Shown here: positions 4,975 through 60,267 of the stretch, one piece after another
Numbering within the stretch: the stretch's first letter is position 1
Layout: every line of letters starts with the position of its first letter
Translations under genes and position numbers: made by a program
DNA from: Bacteroidota bacterium
Lineage (GTDB): Bacteria; Bacteroidota; Bacteroidia; JAKFFM01
Assembly: GCA_036675075.1 (NCBI GenBank)
Contig: JAKFFM010000002.1
Coordinates: 83,120 to 147,119 of the forward strand
Length of the DNA: 64,000 nt
Reading direction: 5' to 3'
Notes under the pieces: generated by a model
The model's input: the letters and a program-made list of their open reading frames with translations, nothing else
What the model was told of the DNA's origin: nothing
Database searches by the model: none

Positions 4975-5294
4975 ACCCCATCATTGCAAACAGGAAGCCA
5001 GAAGCACCAGAAACATCATACTTTACACATGTGAATACAAAGCAAGAAGAAACAAAAGAGTGAAATACTTTTTAACAGGAGTTGAAATTACTCTGGTTAC
5101 GCACGATTCATGTTGACTAAAACGGAAACTTCACGTCATGAAAAAAGCGAAAAAGAAAGAGAAGCCTGAACCTGTTTTTATCGCGGTAACTACTGATACA
5201 GATCGTTCCAGTCATTTCGATCAGTGCATTGTCCTGGAATCTGTGTTGATGAAAAAGAAGCCAGTGAGAGAAAATTCATCTGATCGTTAACTGA

Positions 5295-12558: not shown

Positions 12559-12643
12559 AGCAGCAAAGGTAAGAGGTTACAGCAGCAATGAATGCCGAAA
12601 AAACTCGTTTTCAATGTATCTTTGTAAAAATTTATTGAGCGAG

Positions 12644-13237: not shown

Positions 13238-13259
13238 CTTTTCTTGTAACTTTAGCTGA

Positions 13260-19296: not shown

Positions 19297-19574
19297 GTTA
19301 CTGTACTGTTTTTAGTTGAAACGCTAAATTAAGGAATTCCGGCTGATGCTGGTATTTTTCCCTTTCTCTTTAATCTTTTTCCGGGAAATTTATTGTTTTT
19401 AAAGGGCCCGAAAATCGCAAATTGCTGTAAATCAACATTGTGCCATCTTGCATTGTATGCCAATAAAGTGGTATGGTAAGCCACAACCCGCTCTGGGCAA
19501 TATCGACGCCATATACCGGTTTTAGAATAGTTGTTTAACAGGTGCGGAAAGCCGCGTCATTAATAAGAAAGAGC

Positions 19575-25255: not shown

Positions 25256-25298
25256 AGGCATAGATTTTTTAATGATCACCTGGAATAAATCGGTTGAT

Positions 25299-30324: not shown

Positions 30325-31551
30325 ATGAAAGAATTGAACAACGACAGGGTTCATTTTATGAACCTTGATTTCCTGAGGTTCCTTGCGGCCTACATGATTG
30401 TGATTCTTCACTCCTTTACTGCGTGGCAGGCAAATTACGGGAATCCGACATGGATGGAAGCGAAGGATGGCAATCTTTCCTTTTTCGGATTATTATTGAA
30501 CCGTGGAGTAAATAATCTTGGATTTGGTGTGGATATATTTTTCCTGATCAGCGGATTCCTGATTACTTACCTGTTGCTCGCAGAACGTGAAAGAACAGGT
30601 GGTGTTGACGTTTTCAAGTTTTATGTTCGAAGAGCTTTCAGGATCTGGCCATTGTATTTCCTGCTGTTGCTGGGTGCTCCGTTAATGGCGTTTTTCTTCA
30701 ATGAGAAGATGCCTGAGTTTGCTTACCATTTTGCCTTCCTGGGAAACTTTGAAACGATCAAAAACCATACGATCAATCCAATCACTACGCATTTGTGGTC
30801 TATCTGTGTGGAAGAACATTTCTACCTGATCTGCCCTGTGATCCTGGCGTTCATTCCGACAAAGAAATTGCCTCAGGCATTCCTCATCATCATTTTTGCA
30901 TCGATCCTTTTCAGGTACAACATCTATGATCATCCAAACTCAAGCAGTCATCTCTATCTGAATACCTTGAGCAGAATTGATACGCTTGCGTTAGGTTGTC
31001 TTTTCGGATACCTTGTTTATTTCAAGAAACTTCAGTTCAACGATCCTTTGCCTGTGAGGCTGATTGTTTATTCGATCTTCCTGCTCATGTTATTCACGGA
31101 GAATTTCAAGAGCGTTCATTCTCCATTTGATGCTGCATTGAAAAAGTACCTGTTCCTGATGCCGGCAGCTTACTGGCTTGGGAATTTTATTTTCAATGCG
31201 GGCGCAGTGATGGTTCCAAGGAAGGAAAACTTCTTCCATTTGCTGGGTAAAGCTTCTTATGGATTATATATGTTTAATCCTGTACTTATTTCTGTTATGC
31301 TGAAGTATTTCCATAAGTATGACTTCCAGAATTTCATTGTGTACACCGTACTCGTGAACGGAATCCTGCTCGGAATCACCCTGCTGAGTTATCACTATTT
31401 TGAAATGCCATTCCTCAAGCTGAAAGAGAAGTTTTCTGTTATTCCAAGCGGAAGTACAAAGCATGCTGCCCAGAACCCGGAACCTTCAAAAGCTCCGGTA
31501 CTGGCTGCAGTTGAAGAAAGCAAAGTGCCTCCAACACAGGGACAGGTATAG
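30325..31551 (+). CDS. Acyltransferase family 3 membrane protein (polysaccharide O-acyltransferase-like)
   Basis: 408 aa; about ten TM helices; N-terminal LDFLRFLAAYMIVILHSF and RIWPLYFLLLL resemble acyltransferase-3 (OatA/WecH-like) proteins. Confidence 0.7.
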   Translation: MKELNNDRVHFMNLDFLRFLAAYMIVILHSFTAWQANYGNPTWMEAKDGNLSFFGLLLNRGVNNLGFGVDIFFLISGFLITYLLLAERERTGGVDVFKFYVRRAFRIWPLYFLLLLGAPLMAFFFNEKMPEFAYHFAFLGNFETIKNHTINPITTHLWSICVEEHFYLICPVILAFIPTKKLPQAFLIIIFASILFRYNIYDHPNSSSHLYLNTLSRIDTLALGCLFGYLVYFKKLQFNDPLPVRLIVYSIFLLMLFTENFKSVHSPFDAALKKYLFLMPAAYWLGNFIFNAGAVMVPRKENFFHLLGKASYGLYMFNPVLISVMLKYFHKYDFQNFIVYTVLVNGILLGITLLSYHYFEMPFLKLKEKFSVIPSGSTKHAAQNPEPSKAPVLAAVEESKVPPTQGQV

Positions 31552-34643: not shown

Positions 34644-36443
34644 CTATTTCATTTTCGCTATCTCCGCATCCATCCACGCTCCTCTGTCAGCTACCCATTG
34701 CTTGAGGCGATCAATCTCTCCTTTGTGATCAGCAGGGAGTGGCAATGGATTCATTCCAACCTGTGAGCCAAGCACTGGCCATTTCCTGAAGTTTCGCTCT
34801 GTCGCTTCCTTCATCATGGTGGTGTTCTTGTCTATCAGTGAGTTAATTGCTGAATTGCTAAGTGTTCCTTTTCGTAATTGTTGCCAGCGTTCCTTGACCA
34901 TTCCTTTAAAAACGGGGTCGTTCATCATTCTTCCCCACCATTGTGGAACAGGATACGTGGTGTCTGGTGAACTGTATTGCCATCCTTCAGGATCACTTCC
35001 ATTACCGTAGTTGGCATTGTTCCATGCAAGATCATAATCCCATACCGGTCCTATGTTTAACCTTGCATCCCGATCGTCACGGTCTTTATACAGATAGGTG
35101 CTGAGCTTATAAGCGTCTACATTCTTGCTGAATTCATTGATCAGGAAGAAGTCAACAAAGCTCTTCAGGTTTGCATAGCGTCTGTAGGATTTTTCCGAGT
35201 TGTAATCATAGCTGATCAGTGCATGCTCAAAGCTGTCAACGTATGTCTGAAGGTATTTTTTCTGTAATGGGTTGATGTCATCTTCATCGGGATATGTATA
35301 GCGATAGAAGACTTTCTTTGTGCCCTCAAATGCAGCGGGAATGCTTGAATAAAACCCTTGTGTATCCGATTCAAACCGGTCGATCTTGAAGATGTATCCT
35401 CCGGATAAAACCTTGGGATCAGCCGGTTGATCACTTTGTTGCGCGATATTGATCCTGTTCTCGTCGCGCTTTATTTTTTCAGTAAGCATGTAGATGCCTC
35501 TGTAATCTCCATTGATCACAAGCTCTACAAACCTACTGCGTGGCGAGTAGTGGCCCATCTGACCAAATAGTGTGTAGGTCAGGTAATTCCTTAAGAGCGA
35601 TTTATCTGAATAAGGAGCATACAGGATCCAGTCTTTCTCTGCTGGAAGATCCAGGAGTCCATGGTCTTTCTTTTTACCTGTGCTGTCTGTTGTAGAGAAA
35701 GCATAGGACTTTTTTGAATAGTTCTGTGAACTGGAACCTCGTGTTTCAATGGTGATGGTTCCTGAATAATTTCTGAATTGATCTGTGATGGTGTTGATCT
35801 TCCCTTTGCTATGTATAATGCCCATACCTGCCTTGATGCGTGGTGAGTCAGGGATGTTGTTACCTGCAGTGTTGATCACTACGATCGGTAATTCTGATGA
35901 TTCAAGGATCACAGGTGATGGTGCATCTTCTCCGAAGGTCAGCTTCCATGATAGCAGCTTGCCGGAGAATAATGAAGGCTTCCAGTCTTTGACCAATAAC
36001 TTCCAGGCACCGCTCATGGTCTGTCCGTTATTGATTGATCCGAGGTAATCAACAGGTCTGTATTTCCCGGTAAACGGCGGAGACGCGCATTTGATGGGCT
36101 GTTTCGCATCTTCACTGAAACAGGTGTTTCTGTAGTGCTTGGCACCCGGACCATTGACATAGGTGAGTTCAACTTCACTGCCATCAGGAGCTTTCAGGTA
36201 CATCACGATCTCTGAGAGGTCATCATGATCCAGATCGATCATCACTTCTTTTAATCCGAACTCTGAGCTAAGCTTTCTGGAAACTGAATCATTAACCTCG
36301 ATGATGAACTCGGTGAAGATCCCATCATTCGTGATGTTTCCGCCTTGCCCGATAAAGGTGTTGACAGGTGACTGCCCGTTTGTACATGCAAACAGCAATA
36401 CCATGAAAGAAAGAAGAACTTTTGTAGAGATGTTTAAGTTCAT
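34644..36443 (-). CDS. CotH kinase-like lipoprotein with N-terminal proprotein-convertase-type P domain
   Basis: 599 aa; lipoprotein-type signal (LLFACTNG); P-domain-like GQTMSGAWKLLVKDW...GKLLSWKLTF; CotH-like core SDKSLLRNYLTYTLFGQMG...RFVELVINGDYRGIYMLTEKI. Confidence 0.55.
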   Translation of the reverse strand: MNLNISTKVLLSFMVLLFACTNGQSPVNTFIGQGGNITNDGIFTEFIIEVNDSVSRKLSSEFGLKEVMIDLDHDDLSEIVMYLKAPDGSEVELTYVNGPGAKHYRNTCFSEDAKQPIKCASPPFTGKYRPVDYLGSINNGQTMSGAWKLLVKDWKPSLFSGKLLSWKLTFGEDAPSPVILESSELPIVVINTAGNNIPDSPRIKAGMGIIHSKGKINTITDQFRNYSGTITIETRGSSSQNYSKKSYAFSTTDSTGKKKDHGLLDLPAEKDWILYAPYSDKSLLRNYLTYTLFGQMGHYSPRSRFVELVINGDYRGIYMLTEKIKRDENRINIAQQSDQPADPKVLSGGYIFKIDRFESDTQGFYSSIPAAFEGTKKVFYRYTYPDEDDINPLQKKYLQTYVDSFEHALISYDYNSEKSYRRYANLKSFVDFFLINEFSKNVDAYKLSTYLYKDRDDRDARLNIGPVWDYDLAWNNANYGNGSDPEGWQYSSPDTTYPVPQWWGRMMNDPVFKGMVKERWQQLRKGTLSNSAINSLIDKNTTMMKEATERNFRKWPVLGSQVGMNPLPLPADHKGEIDRLKQWVADRGAWMDAEIAKMK

Positions 36444-46209: not shown

Positions 46210-47241
46210 ATGAATGCCGTCAAAGCCAAGAAGTTAGTGCTTGTCGCTGCTGCTGGTTTCTTTATGTATTCTTCAGCACTTGCACAGGAAGTTTTGTATC
46301 CATTCTCATCCAAAGGAAAATATGGATTCATAAACAAAGCCGGTAAAGTGGTTGTTCAGCCAGTTTACAATTATGCCGATCACTTCTCAGAAGATATGGC
46401 TGTTGTTAAAAAGGCCGGAAAGAAAGGGTATATCGATAAATCAGGTAAGCTTGTTATTGATGCCATTTACGAAGAAGCAAATGGGTTCAAGGAAGGATTA
46501 AGCTGTGTGAAAAAAGATGGCCGCTGGTTTTATATTGATAAGACTGGCAAGACAATCATAGAAGCACCAAAGTGTGATTTCGCCTATAATTTTTCTGATG
46601 AGCTTGCCCGTTTGCAGATAGGCATGAAGCTCGGATATATGGACAAATCAGGAAAGATTGTAATAGAACCTAAATATGATGCAGCCTATGATTTTAACGA
46701 TGACCTTGCCCGTGTGAAGCCTCAGATGAAAGGGAAATGGGGATTCATTGATAAAAAAGGAAACCTTGTGATTCCTGCACAGTTCGATGATTGCTTTGAT
46801 TTTTCAGAAGGACTAGCCAACGTTCGTAAAGGCGAAGAGTCAACAGGAAAATGGGGCTTTATTGACAAGTCCGGAAAATTTGTGATCGAACCAAAATTTG
46901 ATCGTGCCTGGGGCTTTTCCAATGGCCTTGCATTAGTCAGAGCAGGTGATTTTAAAACCGGGAAGTTTGGTTATATCGATAAAACCGGGAAGACCGTAAT
47001 TGAACCTCAATATGACGGCGCCTTCAACTTTAAGGATGGTCTCGCCAGTGTGCTCCAGGGTGATGTAAAATCAGGAAAATGGGGATACATCGACAAGACC
47101 GGAAAGCAAGTGATCAACAGGCAGTTTGATTACCATGTTGATTTCAGGTATGGACTCGCCGGAGTTAGAATGGGTGGCTTGAAAAGCGGCCGCTCAGCAT
47201 ACATCGATAAAAAAGGAAATTACATCTGGCAGGAAGAGTAA
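46210..47241 (+). CDS. Secreted WG-repeat protein
   Basis: 343 aa; signal peptide; eight repeats of the form KWGFIDKSGK.VIEPKFD.A..F..GLA.V. Confidence 0.6.
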   Translation: MNAVKAKKLVLVAAAGFFMYSSALAQEVLYPFSSKGKYGFINKAGKVVVQPVYNYADHFSEDMAVVKKAGKKGYIDKSGKLVIDAIYEEANGFKEGLSCVKKDGRWFYIDKTGKTIIEAPKCDFAYNFSDELARLQIGMKLGYMDKSGKIVIEPKYDAAYDFNDDLARVKPQMKGKWGFIDKKGNLVIPAQFDDCFDFSEGLANVRKGEESTGKWGFIDKSGKFVIEPKFDRAWGFSNGLALVRAGDFKTGKFGYIDKTGKTVIEPQYDGAFNFKDGLASVLQGDVKSGKWGYIDKTGKQVINRQFDYHVDFRYGLAGVRMGGLKSGRSAYIDKKGNYIWQEE

Positions 47242-47244
47242 ACA

Positions 47245-48687
47245 TTGAAATCATTTAAGAGGAACTCCGGATTCCTTCTCTTCACTCTATTTTTTCTTCT
47301 GTTCCTCATTGTCAAATTCTTCTTCCATGAAATGTGGAAAGATGAATGGCAGGCATGGCAGCTGGCAACAAAAACGGAAAGCTTCAGTCAACTTCTGGGC
47401 ATGCTTCCTGGCGAAGGACACCCAACTCTATGGTTCATTCTGCTTAGAGGCTGGAACCATCTTATCAGCTTTGTTTTCCCAGATTCAGCTGAATGGTTCA
47501 GACTGCAACTTGTTCACCTGATCATTGTTGGAACCACGTTGTATCTTGTTGTATTCACTCTGATTGCACAAACCTGGAAGAAGCTTCTTTTCCTAAGCAG
47601 CTATTTTATTCTTTATGAATATTCGGTGATTGCAAGGCCATACATGATTATCGTGCTGCTTTCTTTACTTGCCGTGATCATATTATTAAAAGAGAATGAT
47701 AGCATCAAAGCCAGAATCAGCTTCTCAGTTGTCATCTTTCTGCTTACCCAGACAGAAGTTTATGGCGTGTTCATGGCAGCCGGATTTCTTTGTTATCTCC
47801 TCTGGCAGGAAGACAGGTTAAAATTCCGGAAGTATCATTTGTTTCCAATGGTCGTACTGATTGGAGGAACACTGCTGTTTTACCTGCAGGTACAACCATC
47901 TGAAGAAATATCGCCACTGATTGAGAAGGAACTTAGGACTACATTCAGAATTCTGTCCGACCCATTTCAGTCACTGACCCTCAATACATTTATGCCCGGG
48001 TTCACAGAGACAGTATTCCGGGAAGAACCTGGCGTTATTTCCTTATTGCTTGCTGCCGGATTGTTATATGGCGTCATGTCTTTGTTTAAAATTAAAAGGC
48101 GTTTGTTTCTTCCGTTTATCCTGGTTTTCATCCTGTTTTATTGTTTTGGAGTGTTCTATTTTCTTGGAGGAGTGAGGAACTGGGGGTTGATCTACATTTT
48201 TACACTTTGTCTTTTATTTTTGAAGACCTCAGAAGTGTCTGACTGGAAGGAATATATTGTGCTTAGTGTGATCTTTCTTTTCCAGTTTATTCATGGAGCC
48301 AATGTGATTCTCAGTGATGTTACCGGGAAATTTTCTAACTCCAGGGATGCAGGAGAATTCATCGCGCAGGAGATTCCCGAAGAAGTTCCCGTAATCGGTT
48401 TGAATAAAGCGTATTGTGTGGCCCTGACAGGATATTCAGAAAGATCCCTGATTGGAATGCCAGACAAGAATTCCTATTATTATTTTGAAGAGCAGGACTG
48501 GCGTGGCAAGACCTATCTTCCTGATATGGAAGAGCTATTGATGATGAAAGAACATCTTCGTTCACGAAAGATCATTGTTGTGTACAATAAGCCGCTGGAG
48601 CATGAACGGTTTCCATTGCTGAAGCCACTTACCCAATTCGATGAGCCCTCAATGCGTCGGGAGAATTATTATTTCTATTATTTTTAG
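47245..48687 (+). CDS. Polytopic membrane protein, possibly a GT-C fold glycosyltransferase
   Basis: 480 aa; about ten TM helices; DE dipeptide (MWKDEWQ) directly after TM1 as in PMT/ArnT-type GT-C enzymes; C-terminal soluble domain; 3 nt after the WG-repeat gene. Confidence 0.45.
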   Translation: MKSFKRNSGFLLFTLFFLLFLIVKFFFHEMWKDEWQAWQLATKTESFSQLLGMLPGEGHPTLWFILLRGWNHLISFVFPDSAEWFRLQLVHLIIVGTTLYLVVFTLIAQTWKKLLFLSSYFILYEYSVIARPYMIIVLLSLLAVIILLKENDSIKARISFSVVIFLLTQTEVYGVFMAAGFLCYLLWQEDRLKFRKYHLFPMVVLIGGTLLFYLQVQPSEEISPLIEKELRTTFRILSDPFQSLTLNTFMPGFTETVFREEPGVISLLLAAGLLYGVMSLFKIKRRLFLPFILVFILFYCFGVFYFLGGVRNWGLIYIFTLCLLFLKTSEVSDWKEYIVLSVIFLFQFIHGANVILSDVTGKFSNSRDAGEFIAQEIPEEVPVIGLNKAYCVALTGYSERSLIGMPDKNSYYYFEEQDWRGKTYLPDMEELLMMKEHLRSRKIIVVYNKPLEHERFPLLKPLTQFDEPSMRRENYYFYYF

Positions 48688-48761
48688 ACGAACATTATGG
48701 CCTGTCCGTTATGTAAATAGCTCAGAATTACTTATTATCTTTGCAAACTAATTTTTTAGAA

Positions 48762-50087
48762 ATGTCGAACACGATCGAAAAAAACCAGGTGTATACCAAG
48801 TATAAAGTAAAGGATATCTCCCTTGCAGAATGGGGACGTAAAGAAATTAAACTTGCTGAAGCAGAGATGCCGGGACTGATGGCTCTTCGTGAAAAGCATG
48901 GAAAAGAAAAGCCTCTTAAGGGAGCTCGTATTGCAGGTTGTCTTCACATGACGATCCAGACAGCTGTTCTTATTGAGACACTTGTTGAGCTTGGTGCAGA
49001 GGTGACCTGGTCATCCTGCAATATCTTCTCTACACAGGATCATGCTGCTGCTGCGATTGCCGCTGCAGGAATCTCTGTTTATGCCTGGAAGGGTATGAAT
49101 GAAGAGGAATTTGACTGGTGTATTGAACAGACTCTTTTCTTCGGTGAAGGACGTAAGCCTCTTAACATGATCCTTGATGATGGTGGAGATCTTACAAACA
49201 TGGTGTTTGACAGATTTCCAGAACTAATTAAGGAGATCAAAGGTCTTTCGGAAGAAACAACAACCGGAGTTCATCGTCTTTATGAGCGTATGAAGAATGG
49301 TTCGCTGCCAATTCCTGCGATCAACATCAATGACTCTGTTACAAAATCAAAATTCGATAACAAATACGGTTGCCGCGAATCGCTGGTTGATGCGATCAGA
49401 AGAGCAACTGATATCATGATGGCTGGAAAAGTGGCTGTCGTTGCCGGCTTTGGAGATGTTGGAAAGGGATCTGCAGAATCTTTAAGAAATGCTGGTGTTC
49501 GTGTGATCGTTACAGAAATTGATCCGATCTGTGCACTGCAGGCTGCAATGGAAGGATATGAAGTTCGCAGGATGGACGATGCTGTTAAAGTTTCTGACAT
49601 CATTGTAACTGCGACAGGTAACAAGAATATTGTTGTTGACCGTCACTTCAAATCAATGAAGGATAAGGCAATCGTTTGTAACATCGGTCACTTCGATAAT
49701 GAGATCGACATGGCATGGTTGAACAAAAACTATGGCAATACAAAAGATGTGATCAAGCCACAGGTTGACAAATACACCGTGGATGGCAAAGAGATCATCG
49801 TTCTTGCCGAAGGCCGTCTTGTTAACCTTGGTTGCGCAACAGGACATCCATCATTTGTAATGTCAAACTCATTTACAAACCAGACGCTTGCACAGCTTGA
49901 ACTGTGGCAGCATTCTGACAAGTATGAGAACAAAGTATATACACTACCTAAGCATCTTGATGAAATGGTAGCACGTCTTCACCTTGGTAAAGTAGGAGCA
50001 GAGCTTGATACGCTTACCAATGAGCAGGCAGAATACATCGGAGTTACCGTTGCTGGTCCTTATAAAGCTGATTACTACAGATACTAG
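48762..50087 (+). CDS. ahcY: Adenosylhomocysteinase
   Basis: Track ORF starts at TTG 48741; ATG 48762 preferred. [33 protein letters not shown]-binding [10 protein letters not shown] and overall collinearity with AhcY. Confidence 0.9.
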
Positions 50088-50128
50088 GAAACAGTCATAG
50101 AAGGTACAGAAGTGCCTTGCTAAAATTA

Positions 50129-50160
50129 ATCCCTCTGGATATCCGGAGGGATTTTTTTTA
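50129..50160 (+). terminator. Rho-independent terminator after ahcY, between convergent genes
   Basis: atccctc (50129-50135) and gagggat (50146-50152) form a hairpin followed by eight T (50153-50160). Confidence 0.5.
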
Positions 50161-50184: not shown

Positions 50185-50604
50185 TCAATTATAGACATTG
50201 ATCCTGTTGCCATCCAGGTCACATTGATATTGGAGAAGAGGAGAAGACGCAGGGCCTTTGATCACTGTTCCGTCAGTGATGGAAAATGCAGATCCGCAGC
50301 ATGAGTCAGAAGCGGTGATGCCTGAAGCATCTATCGAAACTAATCCGCAGGAGGCAGTAACATTATATGGACAATGACGTTCATATGCTTTAAACTCCTC
50401 TGTAGATTTTCTATAGATGATCACACCACGCGAACCAGCGGAGTAGTACACATGTCCACCGTTGGCTTGCAAGTTTGAATAGAGCGGGTCTGTGGTATAG
50501 ATTGAAAAGTTGACAGTTACATAAGGTACATGCTCGGTCTGCTTTTTACGGCACCCGGCAAACAGAAATAAAAAAACAACCAGAGGTAGAAGGAAGTGAC
50601 GCAT
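50185..50604 (-). CDS. Small lipoprotein with Rieske-like Cys spacing
   Basis: Start moved to the internal ATG (MRHFLLPLVVFLFLFAGC lipobox). 139 aa; HCPYNVTASCG and SCCGSAF resemble the two Rieske boxes with the His ligands replaced. Confidence 0.4.
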   Translation of the reverse strand: MRHFLLPLVVFLFLFAGCRKKQTEHVPYVTVNFSIYTTDPLYSNLQANGGHVYYSAGSRGVIIYRKSTEEFKAYERHCPYNVTASCGLVSIDASGITASDSCCGSAFSITDGTVIKGPASSPLLQYQCDLDGNRINVYN

Positions 50605-50652
50605 GATCTGCCTTACTTTTGCATAAGAATACAAAGCTCGAAAAATATAAGG

Positions 50653-50946
50653 ATGAGATCTGCTTTCCACAAATTAATTACCATTGTCTTTCTTGTAGTT
50701 CCTGTAGGGCTGGCAGCTCAGAGTGGAGATTCAAAACAGGACAAGCATGAAAAGGAAGCTGACCGCAGAAAGCAGGAGCAGCAGCAGATGCAGGAAGAAG
50801 CGATTGAACGCGGAAGAAAGCGTCAGATGAAGATTCAGACTAAAGAGACCCGAAAGCGCATGAAGAGGAATTCAAAGAAAGCGCGCAAGTTCAATGAAGA
50901 TAAAAGAGAATTCTTCCTTGTAAAGATGTTCCGGAAAAAAAAATAA
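50653..50946 (+). CDS. Hypothetical secreted protein with highly charged K/R/E/Q-rich tail
   Basis: Start at internal ATG 50653 (MRSAFHKLITIVFLVVPVGLAAQ signal peptide); low-complexity charged C-terminal 70 aa; could be non-coding. Confidence 0.3.
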   Translation: MRSAFHKLITIVFLVVPVGLAAQSGDSKQDKHEKEADRRKQEQQQMQEEAIERGRKRQMKIQTKETRKRMKRNSKKARKFNEDKREFFLVKMFRKKK

Positions 50947-51244
50947 CCTGAATTGTTAAATTTTCGTAACATATTTATCTTTACCTTAGTATAACAGACA
51001 ATTCCGCAACATCCCCCCTTTTTCAGATCAGCGGATCTGGTTTACAAGTCAAAATCACTTATTGAGTTACCTGTAAGGGAATCAAGGCTTTAAGACGGTA
51101 TTTTACTGATTTTTCGGGGTGTCCAAAACTGCCAACAAAGCGGGGTTTGGGCTTCCCAAATAAATTTGGAATTTACTTTTTATTGTATTTATCTTTACGC
51201 CTCTTTGATTTGTACAGGTTAGTTTAAATATAATTTTTGTTAAT

Positions 51245-54200
51245 ATGGTCAGGAAACTTTACGTTACCGTATTATTTCTTTTTGTCAGTACTTCTCTACT
51301 GTTAGCGCAGCAAGGGATTCTGAAGGGGACAGTCAAGGACAAAGGCAATGGGGAACCTCTTCCATTTGCTCCCGTCGTTGTTTTATCAGGAACCTCTCAG
51401 ATTGCGGTTGCACAAACAGATTTCAACGGGGAATTTACGATCAAGCCGATCGCTTCCGGAAAGTACACAGTTAAATCTTCTTCAGTAGGGTATAGCCCGA
51501 TCGAGATGAAGAACGTTGTGATCAACTCGGATAAGACAACTTACCTGGATCTTCAGATGTCATCTTCAAGTCAGGAGCTCGATGTCGTTGAAGTCATTGA
51601 ATATTCTAAACCTCTTATTGACAAGAACGTTGTTTCAGGTGGAACGGTAACTCGTGATGAGTTTAACCAGATGGCTACCAAAAACGTGCTGTCAGTTGCT
51701 GCTACAACAGCAGGTATCTACCAGCAGGATGAAGGTAAAGAGATCAGTATCCGTGGTACACGTTCAGGTTCCGGTGGAACTGAAAAAAGCGCGACGGATA
51801 TTTATGTGGATGGTGTAAAAGTTAGAGGCGGTACTGCGGTTCCGCAATCGGCTGTTGACCAGGTATCGGTAATCACAGGTGGTGTTCCTGCACAGTTTGG
51901 TGACGTTACAGGTGGAGTTGTCAGCATCACAACACGCGGACCTTCTGGATTCCAGTCAGGTGGTATCGAATTGATCACATCACAGTACCTTGATAAATTC
52001 AACTACAACTTTATCGGTCTTAACTCAAGCGGTCCGATCCTGTTCAAAAAAGATACAAGCGGAATAAAGCGTCCTTTACTAGGATACTTCTTCGCTGCGG
52101 ATTTCCAGACAGAAAAAGATCCTAACCCTTCTGCCATCGGTGCATGGAAGGTAAATGACGATACATTAAGATATTTAGAGCGTAACCCGCTTCAGACAAA
52201 TGGACTTGGAGGAACTCTAAGAACAACTGAGCGTGTAAGCCGTGATGCACTCGAGCACATTGATGCACGTCAGAATGTTCGTCTGAGCACCATCCGTCTT
52301 AACGGTAAGATTGATATCGCTCCTACACAAAACCTGAACGTAACATTCGGAGGTAACTATGAATTCTCTAAGAATCATGAATACATCTATGAATATGCGC
52401 TTTTCAATCCGGTAAATAACCCGGAGAAAATTGATCAGACCTACAGAGTTTGGGGACGTGTGACACAGAAATTCCTGAACGCTCCGGAAGCACAGGATGA
52501 GAAATCATCTGCGACGATCAAAAATGCATTTTACTCATTACAGGCATCTTATGATAAAGTGTACACAGTGACACAGGATGATAACCATAAAGACAACTAT
52601 TTTGACTATGGTTACATCGGTAAATTCAAAACATACAAAACTCCTGCATACGGAGTGAGAGAGCCACTTCCAACAGATGACCCTGCAAGAGTTGTAACAG
52701 AACTGATCGGTTACAGCGATACCCTTGTAACTTTTACACCTGATACTATTCTTAACCCGACAGCTGCTGCTTACACTCAGCAGTACTATAATCTATATGA
52801 AGGGCAGTCTGATCAGTTCCGCACACTTGACCTGATCATAGCAAACGGTGCACTTAGAAATGGTGACAGACCATCCAACGTATATGCGTTGTGGTATAAT
52901 ACAGGTCGCCAGTACAATGGATATGAAATTGAAGACAGAAATCAGTATCGTTTAATGACGAGCTTCAGTGCAGATATCAAGAACCACGCTGTGATCCTTG
53001 GTTTCGAGTACGAGCAGCGTGATGACCGTTACTTCTCAGTTCTTCCTCCATCATTGTGGACATTGTCAAGACAGCTTGCAAACAAGCACATCCTTTCATT
53101 GAATACCGCTGTGGATGATTCAGTGTTCACAAATGGTGTGTTCATGGATACAATTCTACACCCGGTGCTTGTATCGACAGCGTCACAATCATTCTTCGAC
53201 AAGAACCTTCGTGCTAAGATCGGTGCTGCTGAAGATGAGTGGATCGATGTTGACAACCTGACTCCTGATACTTACTCACTGGATATGTACAGTGCTGATG
53301 AGCTTCTTGACTGGGGTAATACATACGGTGGTATCAGCTACTATGGTTATGACCACACAGGTAAGAAACTTTCAACACGTCCAACGTTTGATGACTTCTT
53401 TACAAAGAAAGATGCTAACGGAAATTACCTGCGCCAGGTGGATGCATTCCGTCCTATCTATATGGCAGGATACATCACTGACAACTTCGACTTTAAAGAT
53501 TTGAAGTTCCGTGTTGGTGTGAGGGTTGACCGTTACGATGCAAACCAGAAAGTTCTGAAAGATCCATACTCTTTATATGATACAAGAAAAGCCGGAGAGC
53601 TTGAGATCGCTGATCGTCCATCGAATATTGGTGATGACTATGTAGTGTATGTATCAGATAGAGAAAACCCTTCAGCTGAAAAAGTTGTTGGATACAGGGA
53701 TGGTGATACATGGTATAATAAAGATGGTATTGTGATCTCTGATCCAACTGTTCTTCACTCTGCTACAGGTATTGCTCCTTACCTTGTTAATCCAAAAGAC
53801 AATATCCAGGACAGTACATTCGTACCATCATCTTCATTTACTGATTACATTCCACAGGTAAATGTAATGCCAAGGATCGCGTTCTCATTCCCTATTTCGG
53901 ATGTGGCGATGTTCAATGCGAACTATGATGTATTGACGATGAGACCATCAAGAAGCAACAGGATGAACCCGATTCAGTACCTGTACCTTTCTCAGAATTC
54001 AGGATCATTCATTAACAACCCGAATTTGAAGCCTGAAAAAACAGTCAACTATGAGATCGGATTCCAGCAGGTGCTTGATGAAAGAAAGAGCTCGAAGCTT
54101 GGTTTGAGTGCATTCTACAAGGAAATGCGTGACATGGTTCAGACCATGCGTGTTTCTGATGCATATCCTACTACATACTATACTTTCGGCAATAGGGATT

Positions 54201-54949
54201 TTGGAACAGTGAAAGGGTTTACTGTTTCTTATGATCTGAGAAGAACAGGGAACGTGAGAATGACAGCAAACTATACATTGCAGTTTGCTGATGCAACGGC
54301 TTCAGGTGCGGCAGATGCTGTTACACTTGTACAGTCAGGAACACCAAACCTGAGGATCATTCACCGTACAGATTTCGATCAGCGTCACAGATTCGTAGCA
54401 ACGTTTGACTACAGATATGGTGAAGGAGTAGATTACAACGGACCAGTTTGGTTCAAGAAGAATGTATTCGAAAATGCAGGAGCCAACTTTACACTGAATG
54501 CTGGTTCAGGTACACCTTATTCAAGACAGCTTAACGTAACACAGGGTGATGACAGAAACAATACTGCAATCGGCCGTGTTCAGACATCACGTTTGAAAGG
54601 TGATGTTAACGGAGCTGACCTTCCTTGGCAGTACAGGCTTGACATGAAGCTTGACAAGTCGTTCGAAGTGAAGTTTGGTGAAGGGTCAGATGGTGAAGCC
54701 AAGATTGGAAGTGTGAATGTTTACCTGTTGGTACTGAATGTTCTTAACACAAGAAACGTACTTAACGTTTACAAATTCACTGGAGCACCTGATGACGACG
54801 GTTACCTTGCAGCTGCTGAATACCAGAGTGAGATCGCTTCAACGATCGATCCTGCATCTTACAGAGACCTTTATGGTATTAAGGTGAACAACCCAAGCAA
54901 CTACAGTCTTCCAAGAAGAATTAGACTTGGTATGACCTTGAATTTTTAA
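51245..54949 (+). CDS. TonB-dependent-receptor-like outer-membrane barrel with N-terminal carboxypeptidase-regulatory-like domain
   Basis: 1234 aa; signal peptide; GILKGTVKDKGNGEPLPFAPVVV...TDFNGEFTI (CarbopepD_reg-like); plug-like ISIRGTRSGSGGTEKSATDIYVDGVKV; ends RRIRLGMTLNF (terminal aromatic). Confidence 0.65.
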   Translation: MVRKLYVTVLFLFVSTSLLLAQQGILKGTVKDKGNGEPLPFAPVVVLSGTSQIAVAQTDFNGEFTIKPIASGKYTVKSSSVGYSPIEMKNVVINSDKTTYLDLQMSSSSQELDVVEVIEYSKPLIDKNVVSGGTVTRDEFNQMATKNVLSVAATTAGIYQQDEGKEISIRGTRSGSGGTEKSATDIYVDGVKVRGGTAVPQSAVDQVSVITGGVPAQFGDVTGGVVSITTRGPSGFQSGGIELITSQYLDKFNYNFIGLNSSGPILFKKDTSGIKRPLLGYFFAADFQTEKDPNPSAIGAWKVNDDTLRYLERNPLQTNGLGGTLRTTERVSRDALEHIDARQNVRLSTIRLNGKIDIAPTQNLNVTFGGNYEFSKNHEYIYEYALFNPVNNPEKIDQTYRVWGRVTQKFLNAPEAQDEKSSATIKNAFYSLQASYDKVYTVTQDDNHKDNYFDYGYIGKFKTYKTPAYGVREPLPTDDPARVVTELIGYSDTLVTFTPDTILNPTAAAYTQQYYNLYEGQSDQFRTLDLIIANGALRNGDRPSNVYALWYNTGRQYNGYEIEDRNQYRLMTSFSADIKNHAVILGFEYEQRDDRYFSVLPPSLWTLSRQLANKHILSLNTAVDDSVFTNGVFMDTILHPVLVSTASQSFFDKNLRAKIGAAEDEWIDVDNLTPDTYSLDMYSADELLDWGNTYGGISYYGYDHTGKKLSTRPTFDDFFTKKDANGNYLRQVDAFRPIYMAGYITDNFDFKDLKFRVGVRVDRYDANQKVLKDPYSLYDTRKAGELEIADRPSNIGDDYVVYVSDRENPSAEKVVGYRDGDTWYNKDGIVISDPTVLHSATGIAPYLVNPKDNIQDSTFVPSSSFTDYIPQVNVMPRIAFSFPISDVAMFNANYDVLTMRPSRSNRMNPIQYLYLSQNSGSFINNPNLKPEKTVNYEIGFQQVLDERKSSKLGLSAFYKEMRDMVQTMRVSDAYPTTYYTFGNRDFGTVKGFTVSYDLRRTGNVRMTANYTLQFADATASGAADAVTLVQSGTPNLRIIHRTDFDQRHRFVATFDYRYGEGVDYNGPVWFKKNVFENAGANFTLNAGSGTPYSRQLNVTQGDDRNNTAIGRVQTSRLKGDVNGADLPWQYRLDMKLDKSFEVKFGEGSDGEAKIGSVNVYLLVLNVLNTRNVLNVYKFTGAPDDDGYLAAAEYQSEIASTIDPASYRDLYGIKVNNPSNYSLPRRIRLGMTLNF

Positions 54950-54988
54950 TTGAAAGAGAGTTTAATAGTTAGTTTTTAATAATAATCC

Positions 54989-57900
54989 ATGAAAAAAATA
55001 GGCTACATTCTGATCTCCGGTCTTCTCCTCTCAGCCTACCCTGGATTCGCTCGTGAAAACGTTGGATCCGGACTCCGCCAAGCTTCCCAGCCTGCTGCCC
55101 CTCGCATGATGGCTGGATGTTCGCCTGGCTCTACGAAGACTGACCTTGCGGTGAATAACGTAAGGGCTAAGATCTTTACTTCTGGTGATATGTGGTGGGA
55201 TCTTGTGGGTAACGCGAAATACGAAGTTCCAAAAGGTTCTGGTAAAACATCCCTGTTTGCCGGATCATTATGGATCGGAGGTATCGATGCCAGTGGACAG
55301 CTGAAAGTTGCCGCGATGACCTATCGTCAGACAGGTAACGATTTCTGGCCAGGGCCTTTATCCAACACAGCAACAGTAGCTGCGGATATCACCCAGGCTG
55401 AATGTAACAAATGGGATAAGCACTTCTCAGTTACATTGAAGGAAGTTCAGGATTTCTATAACTGGACACAGGATAATACAACGATCCCTGGTTATCAGAT
55501 CCCGAATTCAATTCTTGAATGGCCAGGAAACGGTGATGTTTCACAAGGCCAGCTTCAGTTTATCGCGCCATTTACAGATGTGAACGGCGATGGTTACTAT
55601 GATCCTACACTTGGTGACTATCCTGCTTATGACCTTAAGGCAAGCGGATGTGACGGAAAAGACAGGATCTACGGTGACCAGACACTTTTCTGGGTGTTCA
55701 ACGATAAAGGTGATATCCACACGGAAACTGGTGCAGCATCATTAGGTCTTGAAATTCATGCACAGGCGTTTGGTTTCATCACGAATGATGAGATCAACAG
55801 CATGACATTCTACAAGTACAAGATCTTCAACAGATCTTCCATCAAGCTTAACAATACATATTTTGCTAAGTGGGTGGATCCGGATCTTGGAGATTATGGT
55901 GATGACCTTATCGGTTGCGACGTTAAACGTGGACTTGGATTCTGCTATAACGCAAATGAAAATGACGGATCAGGTAACACCTTCACTTACGGTGCAAATC
56001 CTCCGGCAATCGGTATGGACTTCTTCGAAGGACCAGTAGCTGATAAAGACGGAATTGATAACCCGGCAAGTGAAACAGAAAATGGTCTTGGCTACGGAAA
56101 CGGGATTCCCGATGACGAGCGTTTAGGAATGGAGAAATTCATGTTCTATAAGAATGACCCGACACTTGAAGGTAACCCTGACAACGCCCAGCATTTCTAC
56201 AATTATTTGTCTGGCCGCTGGAAAGATGGTCTTCCTATCACTTATGGTGGTAGCGGACACGCTGCGAGTGGTACTCCTACAGATTACATGTTCCCTTGGG
56301 ATACTGATGATGCCAATGGAAATGTGATGTGGGAGCAGGCTTCTTTCTCTGATGGACGTATGGTTCAGTCAGCAGGAACATTCTCACTTGAACCGGGTGC
56401 TGTGAACTATGTAACAGTAGGAGCAGTTTGGGCAAGAGCAACTTCTGGAGGTAGAAAAGCTTCAGTTGAACTGATGAGACAGGCTGATGATAAAGCACAG
56501 AAGCTGTTTGACAATTGTTTCCAGTTGCTAAGAACACCGGATGCCCCTGAATTAACAATCAGAGAGCTCGATAAGGAATTGATCATTATGATCGATAATC
56601 CAAAAACATCGAATAACTATAATGAGTCGTTCTCCGTTGTTGACCCGCTTATTCCATCTATTTATGCACCAAACAACAGGTACGTGTTTGAAGGATACCA
56701 GGTTTACCAGGTTAAAGACGCTACAGTAACAGCGACTGATCTTGGGAATCCTGACAGAGCAAGATTGGTTCTTCAGTCTGACGTCAAGAATGGTGTTGGT
56801 CGTGTGATCAACTACGAGTTTGATCCAAACCTGAGTGTTACAGTACCACGTGAAATGGTAGTTGGAAGTGATGCCGGCATTGTGCATTCTTTCAGAGTTA
56901 CTGAAGATCAGTTTGCAGTAGGAGATAATAACCTTGTGAACCACAGAACATATCATTTTCTTGCGATTGCTTATGCATATAACAATTACAAGGGATATGC
57001 ACAGGACACTCCTCCGGATCTTGGTTGCCCTACCTGTCCTGCAACGGATGGTCAGAAGCTTCCATACCTTGGTTCAAGCAAGAATATCACAGTGAAAAGC
57101 GCAATTCCACATATTCCGGCACCTCAGGCAGGTGGTACAGTAGCACACTCCAAATATGGTGATGGTGTTAAAGTAACACGTATCGAAGGCCAGGGTAATG
57201 GTGGAAACGTTATCGAGTTTGATGAGAAAGTTCATGATGAAATTCTGAGCGCAGCTGATCACAAATCGAACAACCCAGTATATACACGCGGTAAAGGCCC
57301 CGTTCAGATCAAGGTTGTAGATCCACTAGCTGTACCGGAAGGTGATTTTGAATTCCTGATGATCGATACAAACTCATCCATCGGTTACACTCAGCTTTCA
57401 AAAGCAAACTGGCTGATCAGAAACAAAACGACAGGCCAGGAAGTGTTCTCGAATCAGTCGATCAACACATTCAATGAGCAGATCATTGCAGACTGGGGAC
57501 TTTCTGTCACTCTTGCACAGGTACCTGAAGTATTCTGTACTTCAAAAGATCAGAACATCCTGGAAGCATCAGTAACTTATAAGAATGACCAGAAGCAGTT
57601 CCTTGCAGGTCTTCCGGATAATGAAGGAGTTGATCCTCAGAACTGGATCCGTGCAGGTGCAAACAATACTGACCCGAAAGATTACGATGAATTCACAGTG
57701 TGTAATCCAGCTGTAAAAGACTTTATCGATCCTGAACAGAAATTCGAAAGAATGCTTACAGGATGGTCACCTTACAGACTTACATCAACAGATGCTGACG
57801 GTCCGGCATGGAATAACAGCGTTGCGATGACACAAAACAGAATTTCAAACATCGGTAGCGTAGACATCGTGATCACGAAAGATGTGACCAAGTGGAGCCG

Positions 57901-59098
57901 TTGCGTTGTGTTTGAAACAGGTAGCGATCCATTGCTTGCAGAAGGTGGTGCACAGAAGTTGAACCTTAGAAATCACGTATCTGTTGATAAGACAGGTGCA
58001 GCTGACAACTCAGGAACAAAAGGTATGAGCTGGTTCCCTGGATATGCAATCAACGTAGAAACTGGTGAACGTTTAAACATCGCTTTCGGTGAGAGCTCAT
58101 GGTTAGTTGGTCAGAATGGTAACGACATGATGTGGAATCCAACTTCTGATCTTGTTGATCCATTGAATACAATGCAGCTTTGGGGTGGTAAACATTACAT
58201 CTATGTATTCGGACATAATGGGGATGTAAGATGGGATACGATCCCAGGAAGCCCGAACCTGGCTCCTGCAGGAACGAATCTGAAGAACCAGCTGAAGAGC
58301 ATTCCTAAGTATGACTCTTGTAAGACGATCTACAACATGATGAATGAGTACCAGACGATGACATCGCCTAACGTACTGATCAAGCGTGCTGTGTTTTCTG
58401 ATATTATGTATGCAGGAATTTTGACTGCAGCACAGGGATACAGTTTCAAGAATCCTCAGGATATGCCAACAGATGTGACTTACCGCATTCGAATCGGGAA
58501 GCCATACAAGCCTTGGGCTTCTGGCGCTGAAATCAAGAATAACGAACCGCTTGTAGCTGGAAAAGGATATGTTGTTAAGACTGGTCCTATCAAGCACAAT
58601 AACAAGACGTACCAGCCAGGTCAGTCGTTTGTTGCGAGAAATTCAACAATGACAAAGAACTTCCCTTACCAGACATATTGGTCAGTAACTGAAGCTCCGA
58701 ACAATGCTGGTCTTCCAATGTACACATTCAATACAGCAGACATTGCTGCTGATACTGCAAATGCTGATGCAGCGAAGAATGCGCTTGCGCTGATCAATGT
58801 TGTTCCGAATCCATACTATGCATATTCAGCATATGAATCGACAAACATTGACAACAGGATCAAGTTCACGAACCTTCCACAGAAGTGCCAGATCACTATC
58901 TATTCAAGCAATGGAGGATTGATCAAGCAGATTTCTAAAGATGACCCTATCACATCCATTGAGTGGGATCTGAAGAACAATGCAGGCATTCCGATCGCGA
59001 GTGGTGTTTACATCGTGCATGTGAATGTTGAGGGAGTTGGAGAACGCATTCTGAAATGGTTTGGAATGATTCGCCCGGTGGATCTTGAAGTGTACTAA
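54989..59098 (+). CDS. Large T9SS-targeted protein (type-A CTD); PorU-like only by position next to the PorV-like gene
   Basis: 1369 aa; signal peptide; C-terminus VVPNPYYAYSAYE...ITIYSSNGGLIKQI...GVYIVHVNV matches the Por-secretion tail; I could not recognise a C25 peptidase catalytic motif by eye. Confidence 0.6.
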   Translation: MKKIGYILISGLLLSAYPGFARENVGSGLRQASQPAAPRMMAGCSPGSTKTDLAVNNVRAKIFTSGDMWWDLVGNAKYEVPKGSGKTSLFAGSLWIGGIDASGQLKVAAMTYRQTGNDFWPGPLSNTATVAADITQAECNKWDKHFSVTLKEVQDFYNWTQDNTTIPGYQIPNSILEWPGNGDVSQGQLQFIAPFTDVNGDGYYDPTLGDYPAYDLKASGCDGKDRIYGDQTLFWVFNDKGDIHTETGAASLGLEIHAQAFGFITNDEINSMTFYKYKIFNRSSIKLNNTYFAKWVDPDLGDYGDDLIGCDVKRGLGFCYNANENDGSGNTFTYGANPPAIGMDFFEGPVADKDGIDNPASETENGLGYGNGIPDDERLGMEKFMFYKNDPTLEGNPDNAQHFYNYLSGRWKDGLPITYGGSGHAASGTPTDYMFPWDTDDANGNVMWEQASFSDGRMVQSAGTFSLEPGAVNYVTVGAVWARATSGGRKASVELMRQADDKAQKLFDNCFQLLRTPDAPELTIRELDKELIIMIDNPKTSNNYNESFSVVDPLIPSIYAPNNRYVFEGYQVYQVKDATVTATDLGNPDRARLVLQSDVKNGVGRVINYEFDPNLSVTVPREMVVGSDAGIVHSFRVTEDQFAVGDNNLVNHRTYHFLAIAYAYNNYKGYAQDTPPDLGCPTCPATDGQKLPYLGSSKNITVKSAIPHIPAPQAGGTVAHSKYGDGVKVTRIEGQGNGGNVIEFDEKVHDEILSAADHKSNNPVYTRGKGPVQIKVVDPLAVPEGDFEFLMIDTNSSIGYTQLSKANWLIRNKTTGQEVFSNQSINTFNEQIIADWGLSVTLAQVPEVFCTSKDQNILEASVTYKNDQKQFLAGLPDNEGVDPQNWIRAGANNTDPKDYDEFTVCNPAVKDFIDPEQKFERMLTGWSPYRLTSTDADGPAWNNSVAMTQNRISNIGSVDIVITKDVTKWSRCVVFETGSDPLLAEGGAQKLNLRNHVSVDKTGAADNSGTKGMSWFPGYAINVETGERLNIAFGESSWLVGQNGNDMMWNPTSDLVDPLNTMQLWGGKHYIYVFGHNGDVRWDTIPGSPNLAPAGTNLKNQLKSIPKYDSCKTIYNMMNEYQTMTSPNVLIKRAVFSDIMYAGILTAAQGYSFKNPQDMPTDVTYRIRIGKPYKPWASGAEIKNNEPLVAGKGYVVKTGPIKHNNKTYQPGQSFVARNSTMTKNFPYQTYWSVTEAPNNAGLPMYTFNTADIAADTANADAAKNALALINVVPNPYYAYSAYESTNIDNRIKFTNLPQKCQITIYSSNGGLIKQISKDDPITSIEWDLKNNAGIPIASGVYIVHVNVEGVGERILKWFGMIRPVDLEVY

Positions 59099-59125
59099 TA
59101 ATTGAATTCGAGTAATAATACGAAT

Positions 59126-60205
59126 ATGAGAGTAAGCATTAAAAGATTTCTGGTTCTCTTGGCTGCTGCTGCCTTTGTGCAGACAGCAGTTGCGGGGAAT
59201 GAAGACCGCGCCGGACAGGCAGGTGCTTCTGAGCTCCTGATCAATCCGTGGTCACGCAGCACAGGCTGGGCCAGTGCTAACATGGCGACCAGCCGTGGTC
59301 TTGAATCGCAGTTCCTGAATGTTGCCGGAACAGCCTTCACGCGCAAAACAGAAGTGATGTTTTCGCATACGAAGTGGCTTAAGGGAACAGACATCAACAT
59401 CAATGCGTTTGGGTTTACTCAGCGGGTTGGTGAGTCAGGTGTGATTGGACTCGGTGTGATGTCAATGGATTTTGGCAAAATTCCAATTACAACTACGCAG
59501 CTTCCTGAAGGAGGAATCGGAACATTTAATCCTTCTTTCGTTAATATCGGATTATCCTACGCTAAAGAATTTTCGAACAGCATCTATGGTGGATTGACTG
59601 TGAAGGCGGTTAACGAAGCGATCGCTGACGTGAAAGCACAAGGTGTTGCTCTCGATGCAGGTATTCAGTACGTTACAGGAAAAACCAAAAACGTGAAGTT
59701 TGGAATCTCCTTAAAGAACGTCGGACCTCCTTTGAAGTACTCAGGTAATGGTCTTAATCAGACTGCAGTAATCCCTGTTACAAACAGCAAAGGTGGAAAT
59801 ACCCAGCTTACTCTAAGCCAGAGAAACACACCATTTGAATTGCCATCACAGTTGAATATCGGTGGAGCGGTTGACCTGTTCACCTCGAAGGACACTGCAG
59901 TGAAAACAATCCACAGATTGACCATCGCTGCAAGCTTTACTTCAAATTCATTTTCAAAAGATGGTTTCCAGGGTGGTGTTGAATATGGATTCAAAACTTA
60001 CTTCATGGTTCGCGGTGGTTACTACTACGAAGACGGGATCACGAAGGATGCCGAAAGAACTACTGCGCTTACTGGCCCTACAGCCGGATTCACAGTGGAG
60101 CTTCCTCTGAACAGCAGAGGTACTTCTTTTGGTCTTGACTATGCTTACCGCTGGACAAATCCGTTCCAGGGATGCCATACAATCGGCGCCCGAATCAATT
60201 TATAA
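59126..60205 (+). CDS. PorV/LptO-like (FadL-type) outer-membrane beta-barrel protein
   Basis: Start at ATG 59126 (track ORF begins at TTG 59102). Signal peptide; GASELLINPWSRSTGWASANMATS and SHTKWLKGTDININ resemble the N-terminal motifs I recall for PorV; barrel-like alternation to the C-terminus. Confidence 0.5.
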   Translation: MRVSIKRFLVLLAAAAFVQTAVAGNEDRAGQAGASELLINPWSRSTGWASANMATSRGLESQFLNVAGTAFTRKTEVMFSHTKWLKGTDININAFGFTQRVGESGVIGLGVMSMDFGKIPITTTQLPEGGIGTFNPSFVNIGLSYAKEFSNSIYGGLTVKAVNEAIADVKAQGVALDAGIQYVTGKTKNVKFGISLKNVGPPLKYSGNGLNQTAVIPVTNSKGGNTQLTLSQRNTPFELPSQLNIGGAVDLFTSKDTAVKTIHRLTIAASFTSNSFSKDGFQGGVEYGFKTYFMVRGGYYYEDGITKDAERTTALTGPTAGFTVELPLNSRGTSFGLDYAYRWTNPFQGCHTIGARINL

Positions 60206-60235
60206 ATTTTTCGTATATTAGTTTTAGGAAGAGAG

Positions 60236-60267
60236 TCCCGAGCGATCGGGATTCTTTTTCTGCTTTT
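60236..60267 (+). terminator. Rho-independent terminator after the PorV-like gene
   Basis: Perfect hairpin tcccga-gcga-tcggga (60236-60251) followed by the T-rich tract ttctttttctgctttt. Confidence 0.55.

Follow-up and report, generated by a model that had tools for sequence, protein, structure and literature searches.

Which outer-membrane system is encoded when a TonB-dependent-receptor-like barrel, a very large secreted protein and a PorV-like barrel lie side by side? The question is raised by three genes at 51245–60205 of a 64,000-nucleotide (nt) stretch of a Bacteroidota genome (assembly GCA_036675075.1, contig JAKFFM010000002.1, positions 83,120 to 147,119), which in its full length is called the window here. 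From the sequence alone, the second and third genes had been read as a possible porU–porV pair from a type IX secretion system (T9SS), grouped with the plug-containing barrel in front of them. We found a conserved triad made up of a TonB-dependent-transporter fold (gene 1), a large protein with a T9SS signal (gene 2, termed BIG) and a PorV/PorQ-family barrel (gene 3), which are probably co-transcribed. The reading that we prefer, and to which we give about an even chance, is that of a three-gene operon building one outer-membrane and cell-surface complex, distinct from porU–porV, in which BIG is tethered and partners the transporter. What we propose about the function of the triad is drawn from anatomy, conservation and analogy.

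Products of the three genes

The three genes are co-directional on the plus strand, as first described, with gene 1 at 51245–54949 (1234 amino acids, aa), BIG at 54989–59098 (1369 aa) and gene 3 at 59126–60205. The gap of 39 nt between the first two (54950–54988) was confirmed. For gene 3, a product of 367 aa and a gap of 27 nt had been given together; both exist, but they belong to different starts, the former to the longest open reading frame (ORF) from TTG at 59102 and the latter only to ATG at 59126, which encodes 359 aa and is the start picked by gene callers on identical public contigs. A terminator scan and reading of the sequence placed an intrinsic-terminator-like hairpin with a T-run at 60225–60262 (+) (core stem-loop 60233–60254, followed by the T-run), overlapping the terminator reported previously at 60236–60267, and the scan found none in either intergenic gap. 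Because the gaps are only 39 and 27 nt, with no terminator inside the block and one after gene 3, the three genes are likely to be co-transcribed.

Gene 1 encodes a protein of ~137 kDa with a signal peptide ending LLA/QQ. The Pfam models CarboxypepD_reg, Plug and TonB_dep_Rec_b-barrel all scored over their cut-offs, the last with 38.1 bits versus 27. The protein begins with a CarboxypepD_reg-like N-terminal extension (residues 26–117, 51320–51595; PF13715 58.5 bits, PF13620 57.1 bits), followed by a plug domain (residues 134–225, 51644–51919; PF07715 31 bits, cut-off 23.9), which was also seen in the structural model, and by a beta-barrel at 51956–54946, all on the plus strand. The AlphaFold2 model of residues 121–1234, built from a 75-sequence alignment (mean predicted local distance difference test, pLDDT, 84; predicted template-modelling score, pTM, 0.84), showed the plug enclosed by a barrel in which ~22 long strands are separated by very long insertions, as defined from the DSSP strand list of the model and from Foldseek. 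When the model was compared with the PDB using Foldseek, PirA, PfeA, Cir, BtuB and XusA were matched with expect values (E) of 1e-23 to 1e-19 and target template-modelling (TM) scores of 0.6–0.75; the aligned transporters have 580–770 residues, and XusA and the B12 transporter of Bacteroides thetaiotaomicron were among the matches. The barrel has ~400 residues more than solved transporters of 600–750 aa, mostly in inter-strand loops. At the sequence level, the family profile reached solved transporters in the PDB at just 21–23 bits, over the plug, and no solved SusC-like chain at E≤1e-3; likewise, no SusC/RagA model of NCBIfam matched gene 1 at E≤0.01. Thus gene 1 is a divergent TonB-dependent transporter with a plug in a 22-strand barrel. 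Between the extension and the plug, a conserved strand, LDVVEVIEY (residues 112–120, 51578–51604, +), is a candidate TonB box, judging from its position and pattern. The consensus L-x-x-V-E-[VI]-[VI]-E-Y was kept in 74 homologues and was followed by PLID, with P and I in 74/74, L in 71/74 and D in 69/74.

Gene 3 was matched almost end to end by the PorV/PorQ family model NF033709 (150.9 bits versus a cut-off of 90; residues 41–366 on profile positions 3–325 of 326) and, just over the cut-off of 27, by the Pfam PorV model PF19572 (29.2 bits). Its scores lay below the equivalog cut-offs of PorV (NF033710, 72.2 versus 250), PorQ (NF033711, 66.7 versus 220) and PorV2 (36.6 versus 325). The only meaningful PDB sequence match was PorV of Flavobacterium johnsoniae (6h3i_F, E 6e-4), and the 5356 detected homologues carry the NCBI name 'PorV/PorQ family protein'. 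The peptides on which the earlier likeness to PorV was based, GASELLINPWSRS and SHTKWLKG, are present in the product. The likeness holds for the family and fails for the PorV equivalog, and by these profile scores gene 3 is a PorV/PorQ-family protein that falls short of both PorV and PorQ. Membership in PorP/SprF, which had been named as an outcome that would overturn the PorV-like assignment, was not seen among the NCBIfam and Pfam matches at E≤0.01. No second PorV-family gene was found in the window.

BIG has a mass of 150 kDa, begins with a signal peptide and is mostly beta in structure. We found no Pfam, NCBIfam or PDB sequence match in its body; when 34 family members were scanned with Pfam at E≤0.1, only matches related to the tail came up, and searches of the PDB with the single sequence and with a 34-sequence profile returned nothing but a weak match to the PorZ tail (E 0.24). 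The family is nevertheless very large. More than 4810 homologues share 45–50% identity over the full length and are named 'hypothetical', 'T9SS C-terminal target domain' or 'T9SS type A sorting domain-containing protein' at NCBI, and an exhaustive search collected 7677 clusters at 50% identity with E≤1e-3 (2646 with E≤1e-30), whose members bear only the names 'T9SS C-terminal target domain-containing protein' or 'hypothetical protein'.

The body of BIG can be divided into several parts. An N-terminal module of about residues 40–510 (55106–56518, +) carries the invariant motifs GDMWWD, WVFNDKG-x-H-x-E and D-x-D-x-G-x3-DD and, in the AlphaFold model, includes a galactose-mutarotase-like beta-supersandwich. 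Foldseek gave only supersandwich matches in the PDB, at low TM. The N-terminal beta-supersandwich domains of glycoside hydrolases of families GH15, GH65, GH94 and GH116 and the aldose 1-epimerases are 6–12% identical to BIG in sequence; the BIG model lacks an (alpha/alpha)6 catalytic domain, and catalytic residues could not be located on it from this comparison. The same module contains three invariant cysteines (C44, C139 and C310) and an invariant acidic loop, D-x-D-x-G-x3-D-D at residues 297–306, which may form disulfides and a calcium site. Since C44, the first cysteine of the protein, is too far from the signal peptide, BIG does not appear to be a lipoprotein. Towards the C-terminus, a body domain of about residues 960–1170 (57866–58498, +) stood out by its conservation profile, its invariant columns and the highest pLDDT of the model (>90); it carries the motifs GMxWFPGYAINVETGERLN and GGxHYIYVFGHNG, and no relative of it was detected. 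It is followed by a poorly conserved, low-confidence linker of about residues 1171–1255 (58499–58753, +), with column identities of 0.10–0.50, a mean p-distance of 0.657 (residues 1171–1250) and pLDDT <50 at model residues 1181–1200.

The protein ends in a type-A-like T9SS C-terminal domain (residues 1262–1369, 58772–59095, +) with the extension KWFGxxRPxDLxx[FY], assigned from model scores and alignment. The sequence-only reading had described a type A domain here. In support of it, these residues aligned column by column with the type A domains of three other cargo proteins of the window and with a true PorZ tail, sharing the motifs PNP, GxY and KxxK and running ~10 residues past the normal type A terminus; the generic models, however, stayed below cut-off (TIGR04183 18.5 bits versus 23, PF18962 13.5 versus 27). 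A BIG paralogue reached 31.8 bits on TIGR04183, and 9/34 family members matched PF18962 at E≤0.1. In NCBIfam the tail was matched by PorZ (NF052228, 24.9 bits) and PorU (NF033707, 17.9 bits), and it fitted the PorZ and PorU tails no worse than the generic tail model, with PorZ the best. The PorZ match was confined to the tail and compares with a cut-off of 260, and no propellers were among the listed fold matches; BIG was rejected as a PorZ.

These data bear directly on the possibility that genes 2 and 3 are a porU–porV pair encoding the T9SS sortase, or C-terminal signal peptidase, along with its shuttle. A large secretion-domain protein does adjoin a PorV-family barrel in the porU–porV order, and the PorU model does match weakly, but its 17.9 bits compare with a cut-off of 420 and cover only tail residues 1266–1348. 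No C25 catalytic motif had been seen on first inspection, and a gingipain/C25-like catalytic domain with its Cys/His dyad is absent: Pfam found no C25 domain in BIG or in 33 homologues, and the fold matches listed were supersandwich enzymes, folds of the PorU, gingipain, caspase-like or propeller type not occurring among them. The neighbouring barrel, at less than a third of the PorV cut-off, adds to this. At the level of family membership the PorU identity of BIG is refuted by score, by the lack of C25 and by the supersandwich fold, and we regard a porU–porV pair as next to impossible.

Gene order in related genomes

To the three products a nearly invariant gene order can be added. A scan of species-representative genomes identified 78 loci with 85 BIG copies in Flavobacteriales (including Cryomorphaceae and Schleiferiaceae), environmental Bacteroidales and unclassified Bacteroidia metagenome-assembled genomes (MAGs). 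Across these loci and further contigs the order was transporter, BIG, PorV-like barrel, greA and a HIT-family gene, as it is in the window, where greA and the HIT gene follow gene 3. The transporter gene lay directly upstream of BIG in 73/80 testable cases and the PorV-like gene directly downstream in 69/77, strongly supporting the original grouping of the plug-containing barrel with the other two genes. The median intergenic gap in relatives was ~50 nt, and greA and HIT usually came next. The triad order was kept at just 38–47% identity between Flavobacteriales, environmental Bacteroidales and other Bacteroidia MAGs, and the same order was found on more distant metagenome contigs on which BIG is 41–47% identical and up to 1760 aa long. 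Each related locus, flanks included, had exactly one PorV-family gene. The arrangement of the triad is not due to chance.

The exceptions were second full-length BIG copies lying between greA and HIT of the same locus in MAGs of environmental Bacteroidales (L018, L020, L026–L028 and L063; for example 7995–12173 of L026). These copies have an RPxDLxxF tail of their own, with no second transporter or PorV-like gene, and the two BIG proteins of such loci may share one anchor and one transporter. A further exception is an isolated BIG paralogue in L017 (7932–11933, +), two genes away from a genuine porZ (3560–5905, −; 647.9 bits). An ORF that carries an RHS repeat-associated core domain (12239–13339, +) comes after this paralogue. 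L017 comes from the same MAG as L004, a locus with the full triad.

The triad proteins also evolve under strong constraint: their mean p-distances were 0.46–0.49, compared with 0.35 for GreA. Distance matrices of the BIG body and the transporter were correlated with r 0.99, and with a partial r of 0.94 when GreA and HIT were controlled for; we counted such mirror-tree correlations as weak evidence, the genes having a common phylogeny and differing lengths.

Paralogues outside the triad were also informative. Short paralogues of ~1140 aa (L084 7001–10423, L085 2295–5717 and L086 7001–10429) have only the N-terminal 520–540 residues in common with BIG; the rest of each consists of a PKD domain and a type A tail of the ordinary kind, which lacks the C-terminal extension and ends in the usual Por_Secre_tail sequence '...GKLILK'. 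Their genes stand alone, and neither a transporter nor a PorV-like barrel is encoded beside them. Special tail, private barrel and transporter are thus present as a set or missing as a set. The N-terminal module, for its part, looks like an autonomous unit that is also found in conventional T9SS cargo.

We considered whether the three genes might be neighbours through inherited gene order alone, with no common function. The conservation of greA and HIT, which are functionally unrelated, in the same neighbourhood speaks for such an explanation, but the triad genes sit on one strand with tight, terminator-free gaps, it is known what it means mechanistically when a secretion-domain protein is paired with a PorV-family barrel, and the stand-alone paralogues have lost barrel, transporter and special tail together. 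We consider inherited order alone to be very improbable.

The tail of BIG and its barrel

In the T9SS attachment complex of Porphyromonas gingivalis, the pairs PorZ–PorQ and PorU–PorV are anchored through uncleaved secretion domains (PMC10202324, PMC7463736). The proposed arrangement of the triad resembles them, in that a T9SS surface protein would keep a type-A-like domain uncleaved on a PorV/PorQ-family barrel. It also differs from them: the BIG body has neither the PorZ propellers nor the PorU C25 domain, the barrel falls below the PorV and PorQ equivalog cut-offs, and the two genes are adjacent and joined to a TonB-dependent transporter.

No other part of BIG is as well conserved as the secretion domain: column identities there are 0.74–0.81, and its mean pairwise p-distance among 51 orthologues was 0.389. 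The corresponding values were 0.484 (body), 0.657 (linker) and 0.348 (GreA). The extension motif was present in 118/120 close homologues and, in strict or relaxed form, in most full-length representatives. The conserved tail, the extra C-terminal motif, the variable linker and the joint loss in stand-alone paralogues all fit a retained anchor, and we think it slightly better than an even bet, by analogy with these anchoring pairs, that BIG keeps its secretion domain and is held at the surface by its private barrel.

Ordinary released cargo is the alternative that these observations must be set against. In this case the barrel would serve only as the private shuttle of BIG, from which the secretion domain would be cleaved off, and BIG would act as a free enzyme or binding protein whose product or complex is imported in a hemophore-like manner. 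Its secretion domain is type-A-like, its N-terminal module does occur in stand-alone cargo with a normal type A tail, and a partner barrel that fixes the destination of its cargo has been documented for type B cargo (PMC12618676). One would not, however, expect a signal destined to be discarded to be better conserved than the rest of the protein or to carry a conserved extra C-terminal motif. In addition, the dedicated partners of the PorV/PorQ family that are known to date, PorQ and, in its pairing with PorU, PorV, serve as anchors (PMC7463736). Release of BIG is thus quite unlikely in our judgement.

A three-gene logic of cargo, cognate FadL-like barrel and third envelope partner is already known from operons of F. 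johnsoniae such as Fjoh_3950–3952, where a type B cargo is held by its cognate PorP/SprF-like barrel and partnered by a PorE-like protein in what has been proposed to be a static surface complex (PMC12618676), and from PG1035–PorP–PorE of P. gingivalis. The triad shares this logic with different parts: the PorE operons combine a type B domain, a PorP/SprF barrel and a peptidoglycan-binding lipoprotein, whereas the triad combines a type-A-like domain, a PorV/PorQ-family barrel and a TonB-dependent transporter.

Possible functions and the surrounding window

Returning to a tethered BIG, we propose the following sequence of events. Gene 1 supplies a divergent TonB-dependent transporter with its extension, TonB-box-like strand, plug and long insertions. 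BIG carries a T9SS-type secretion domain and would be exported by the T9SS. Its secretion domain would then remain uncut and bound to the neighbouring PorV/PorQ-family barrel, like PorZ on PorQ and PorU on PorV, and the flexible linker of ~80 residues would let the BIG body reach the adjacent transporter. In the last and least certain step, the body would capture or process an extracellular ligand, most likely a glycan or glycoconjugate, and pass it to the gene 1 transporter for TonB-powered import. BIG would thus take the role of the SusD, BtuG or XusB lipoproteins, delivered by the T9SS and anchored on a barrel instead of by lipid. That a tethered BIG uses its sugar-binding-type N-terminal module in this way, for import via gene 1, is a tentative proposal based on analogy, which we place somewhat short of even. 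No riboswitch or other RNA was found upstream of gene 1 with Rfam (gathering threshold for the whole window, E≤1 over 50900–51300), which leaves no clue to the substrate from that side.

The comparison with nutrient transporters has two sides. Like SusC–SusD, BtuB–BtuG and XusA–XusB, the triad encodes a plug-and-barrel transporter beside a putative extracellular partner for ligand capture, although BIG appears not to be a lipoprotein and would be T9SS-exported and held by a separate barrel. Furthermore, unlike SusC/RagA, gene 1 has no signature match and no SusD-like gene beside it, its neighbours being BIG and the PorV-like barrel. The triad joins two known kinds of system, barrel-anchored T9SS surface proteins and transporters with surface partners.

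A different use of a TonB-receptor-like barrel is known from the T9SS itself. PorF of P. gingivalis is a predicted TonB-receptor-like outer-membrane protein that is needed for T9SS function, and its mutant forms beige colonies and loses ~90% of gingipain activity, like porQ and porZ mutants (PMC12704123); in Cytophaga hutchinsonii, the TonB-receptor-like PorF homologue CHU_1606 co-purifies with PorV (PMC8564354). Gene 1 can be likened to PorF (PG0534/PGN_1437; Fjoh_0118, CHU_1606) as a TonB-dependent-receptor-like barrel. The main rival to our reading builds on this family: the triad would be a T9SS accessory module parallel to PorF, PorZ and PorQ, handling a glycolipid or glycan for cargo attachment or maturation and not for nutrient uptake. 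Besides the mutant phenotype and the co-purification, this is favoured by the BIG tail, which is closest to that of PorZ, by the position of the triad among housekeeping genes and its vertical inheritance, and by the BIG paralogue located two genes from a true porZ. PorF, however, has a size of only 92.3 kDa (PMC5445135), as against ~137 kDa for gene 1 with its N-terminal extension and long inter-strand insertions, and the papers on PorF cited here do not describe its gene beside those of a secretion-domain protein and a PorQ-like barrel. BIG is without PorZ-like propellers. In addition, a canonical PorZ (in L017) coexists with the triad (in L004) in at least one MAG, and the triad therefore does not replace the PorZ module. 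On balance we take the accessory module to be improbable.

A tethered BIG partnering the transporter can be extended to a broader proposal. The triad would then amount to a previously undescribed outer-membrane machine, dependent on the T9SS and conserved widely among environmental Bacteroidia, consisting of a transporter and of BIG docked via its uncleaved domain on a private PorQ-like barrel. It would represent a third type of surface partner after SusD and BtuG/XusB, and could be the ancestral context for PorF behaving like PorQ and PorZ in P. gingivalis. As a whole we find this picture rather doubtful. No description of the triad or of 'PorV2' was found in the open-access literature. If the complex is real, it links type IX secretion and TonB-dependent transport, two hallmarks of Bacteroidota that are usually treated apart. 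It would also give a first working hypothesis for the very large BIG family, the body of which is covered by neither Pfam nor NCBIfam, bring the clades of PorV/PorQ-type anchor barrels for which a cognate cargo can be identified to three, make the RPxDLxx[FY] tail recognizable as a 'stay-attached' variant of the type A secretion domain and offer a testable lead on the unexplained role of PorF. Abundant lineages of the sea and of fresh water, among them Schleiferiaceae, Cryomorphaceae and environmental Bacteroidales, carry the triad, so the substrate could be of ecological importance.

Upstream of the triad, an AdoHcyase gene (48741–50087) has a terminator-like hairpin of its own at 50128–50153, and gene 1 is preceded by ~300 nt of non-coding DNA. 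Within it, the sequence TAAATTTG at 51161–51168 matches the Bacteroidota −7 promoter motif and is a candidate promoter element. A sigma-70-type promoter scan gave fewer matches than shuffled sequence and is unsuited to Bacteroidota; its output was set aside. Two small ORFs without a family match (about 50654–50946, +, and 50185–50670, −) lie between the AdoHcyase hairpin and gene 1. One of the two encodes 97 aa with a signal-peptide-like start and a body rich in K, E, R and Q, as read from the sequence.

Since the window codes for five T9SS cargo proteins, two of type B and three of type A, of which one has SprB repeats, the host is a T9SS-bearing member of the Bacteroidota. Among the larger ORFs of the window that were scanned, there were no canonical T9SS machinery genes, only cargo proteins. 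The type B (CHU_C) genes are in tandem (5295–8441, −, and 8567–10825, −); there are five SprB repeats in one product and a PKD domain in the other. We saw no PorP/SprF-like gene beside them, and the next ORF (4195–4974, −) had a marginal Usp match only. The type A genes form a trio on the plus strand that encodes an Ig/PKD-rich protein of 1306 aa (19542–23462), a protein of 549 aa (23485–25134) and an SBBP/delta-60-repeat beta-propeller (25272–26924), and they are followed by genes for a GH26-like protein (27869–29476) and an acyltransferase (30325–31551).

Two further gene pairs were observed in the window. At 46210–47241 (+) a gene encodes eight WG-containing beta repeats (312 bits), and 3 nt on there is a 480-aa ORF without a family match (47245–48687, +); the same pair is present on an identical public contig. 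At 32457–34376 (−) and 34644–36443 (−), a cellulose-synthase-like glycosyltransferase (CelA 231.8 bits, below the equivalog cut-off) adjoins a CotH-kinase-domain protein with a proprotein-convertase P-domain.

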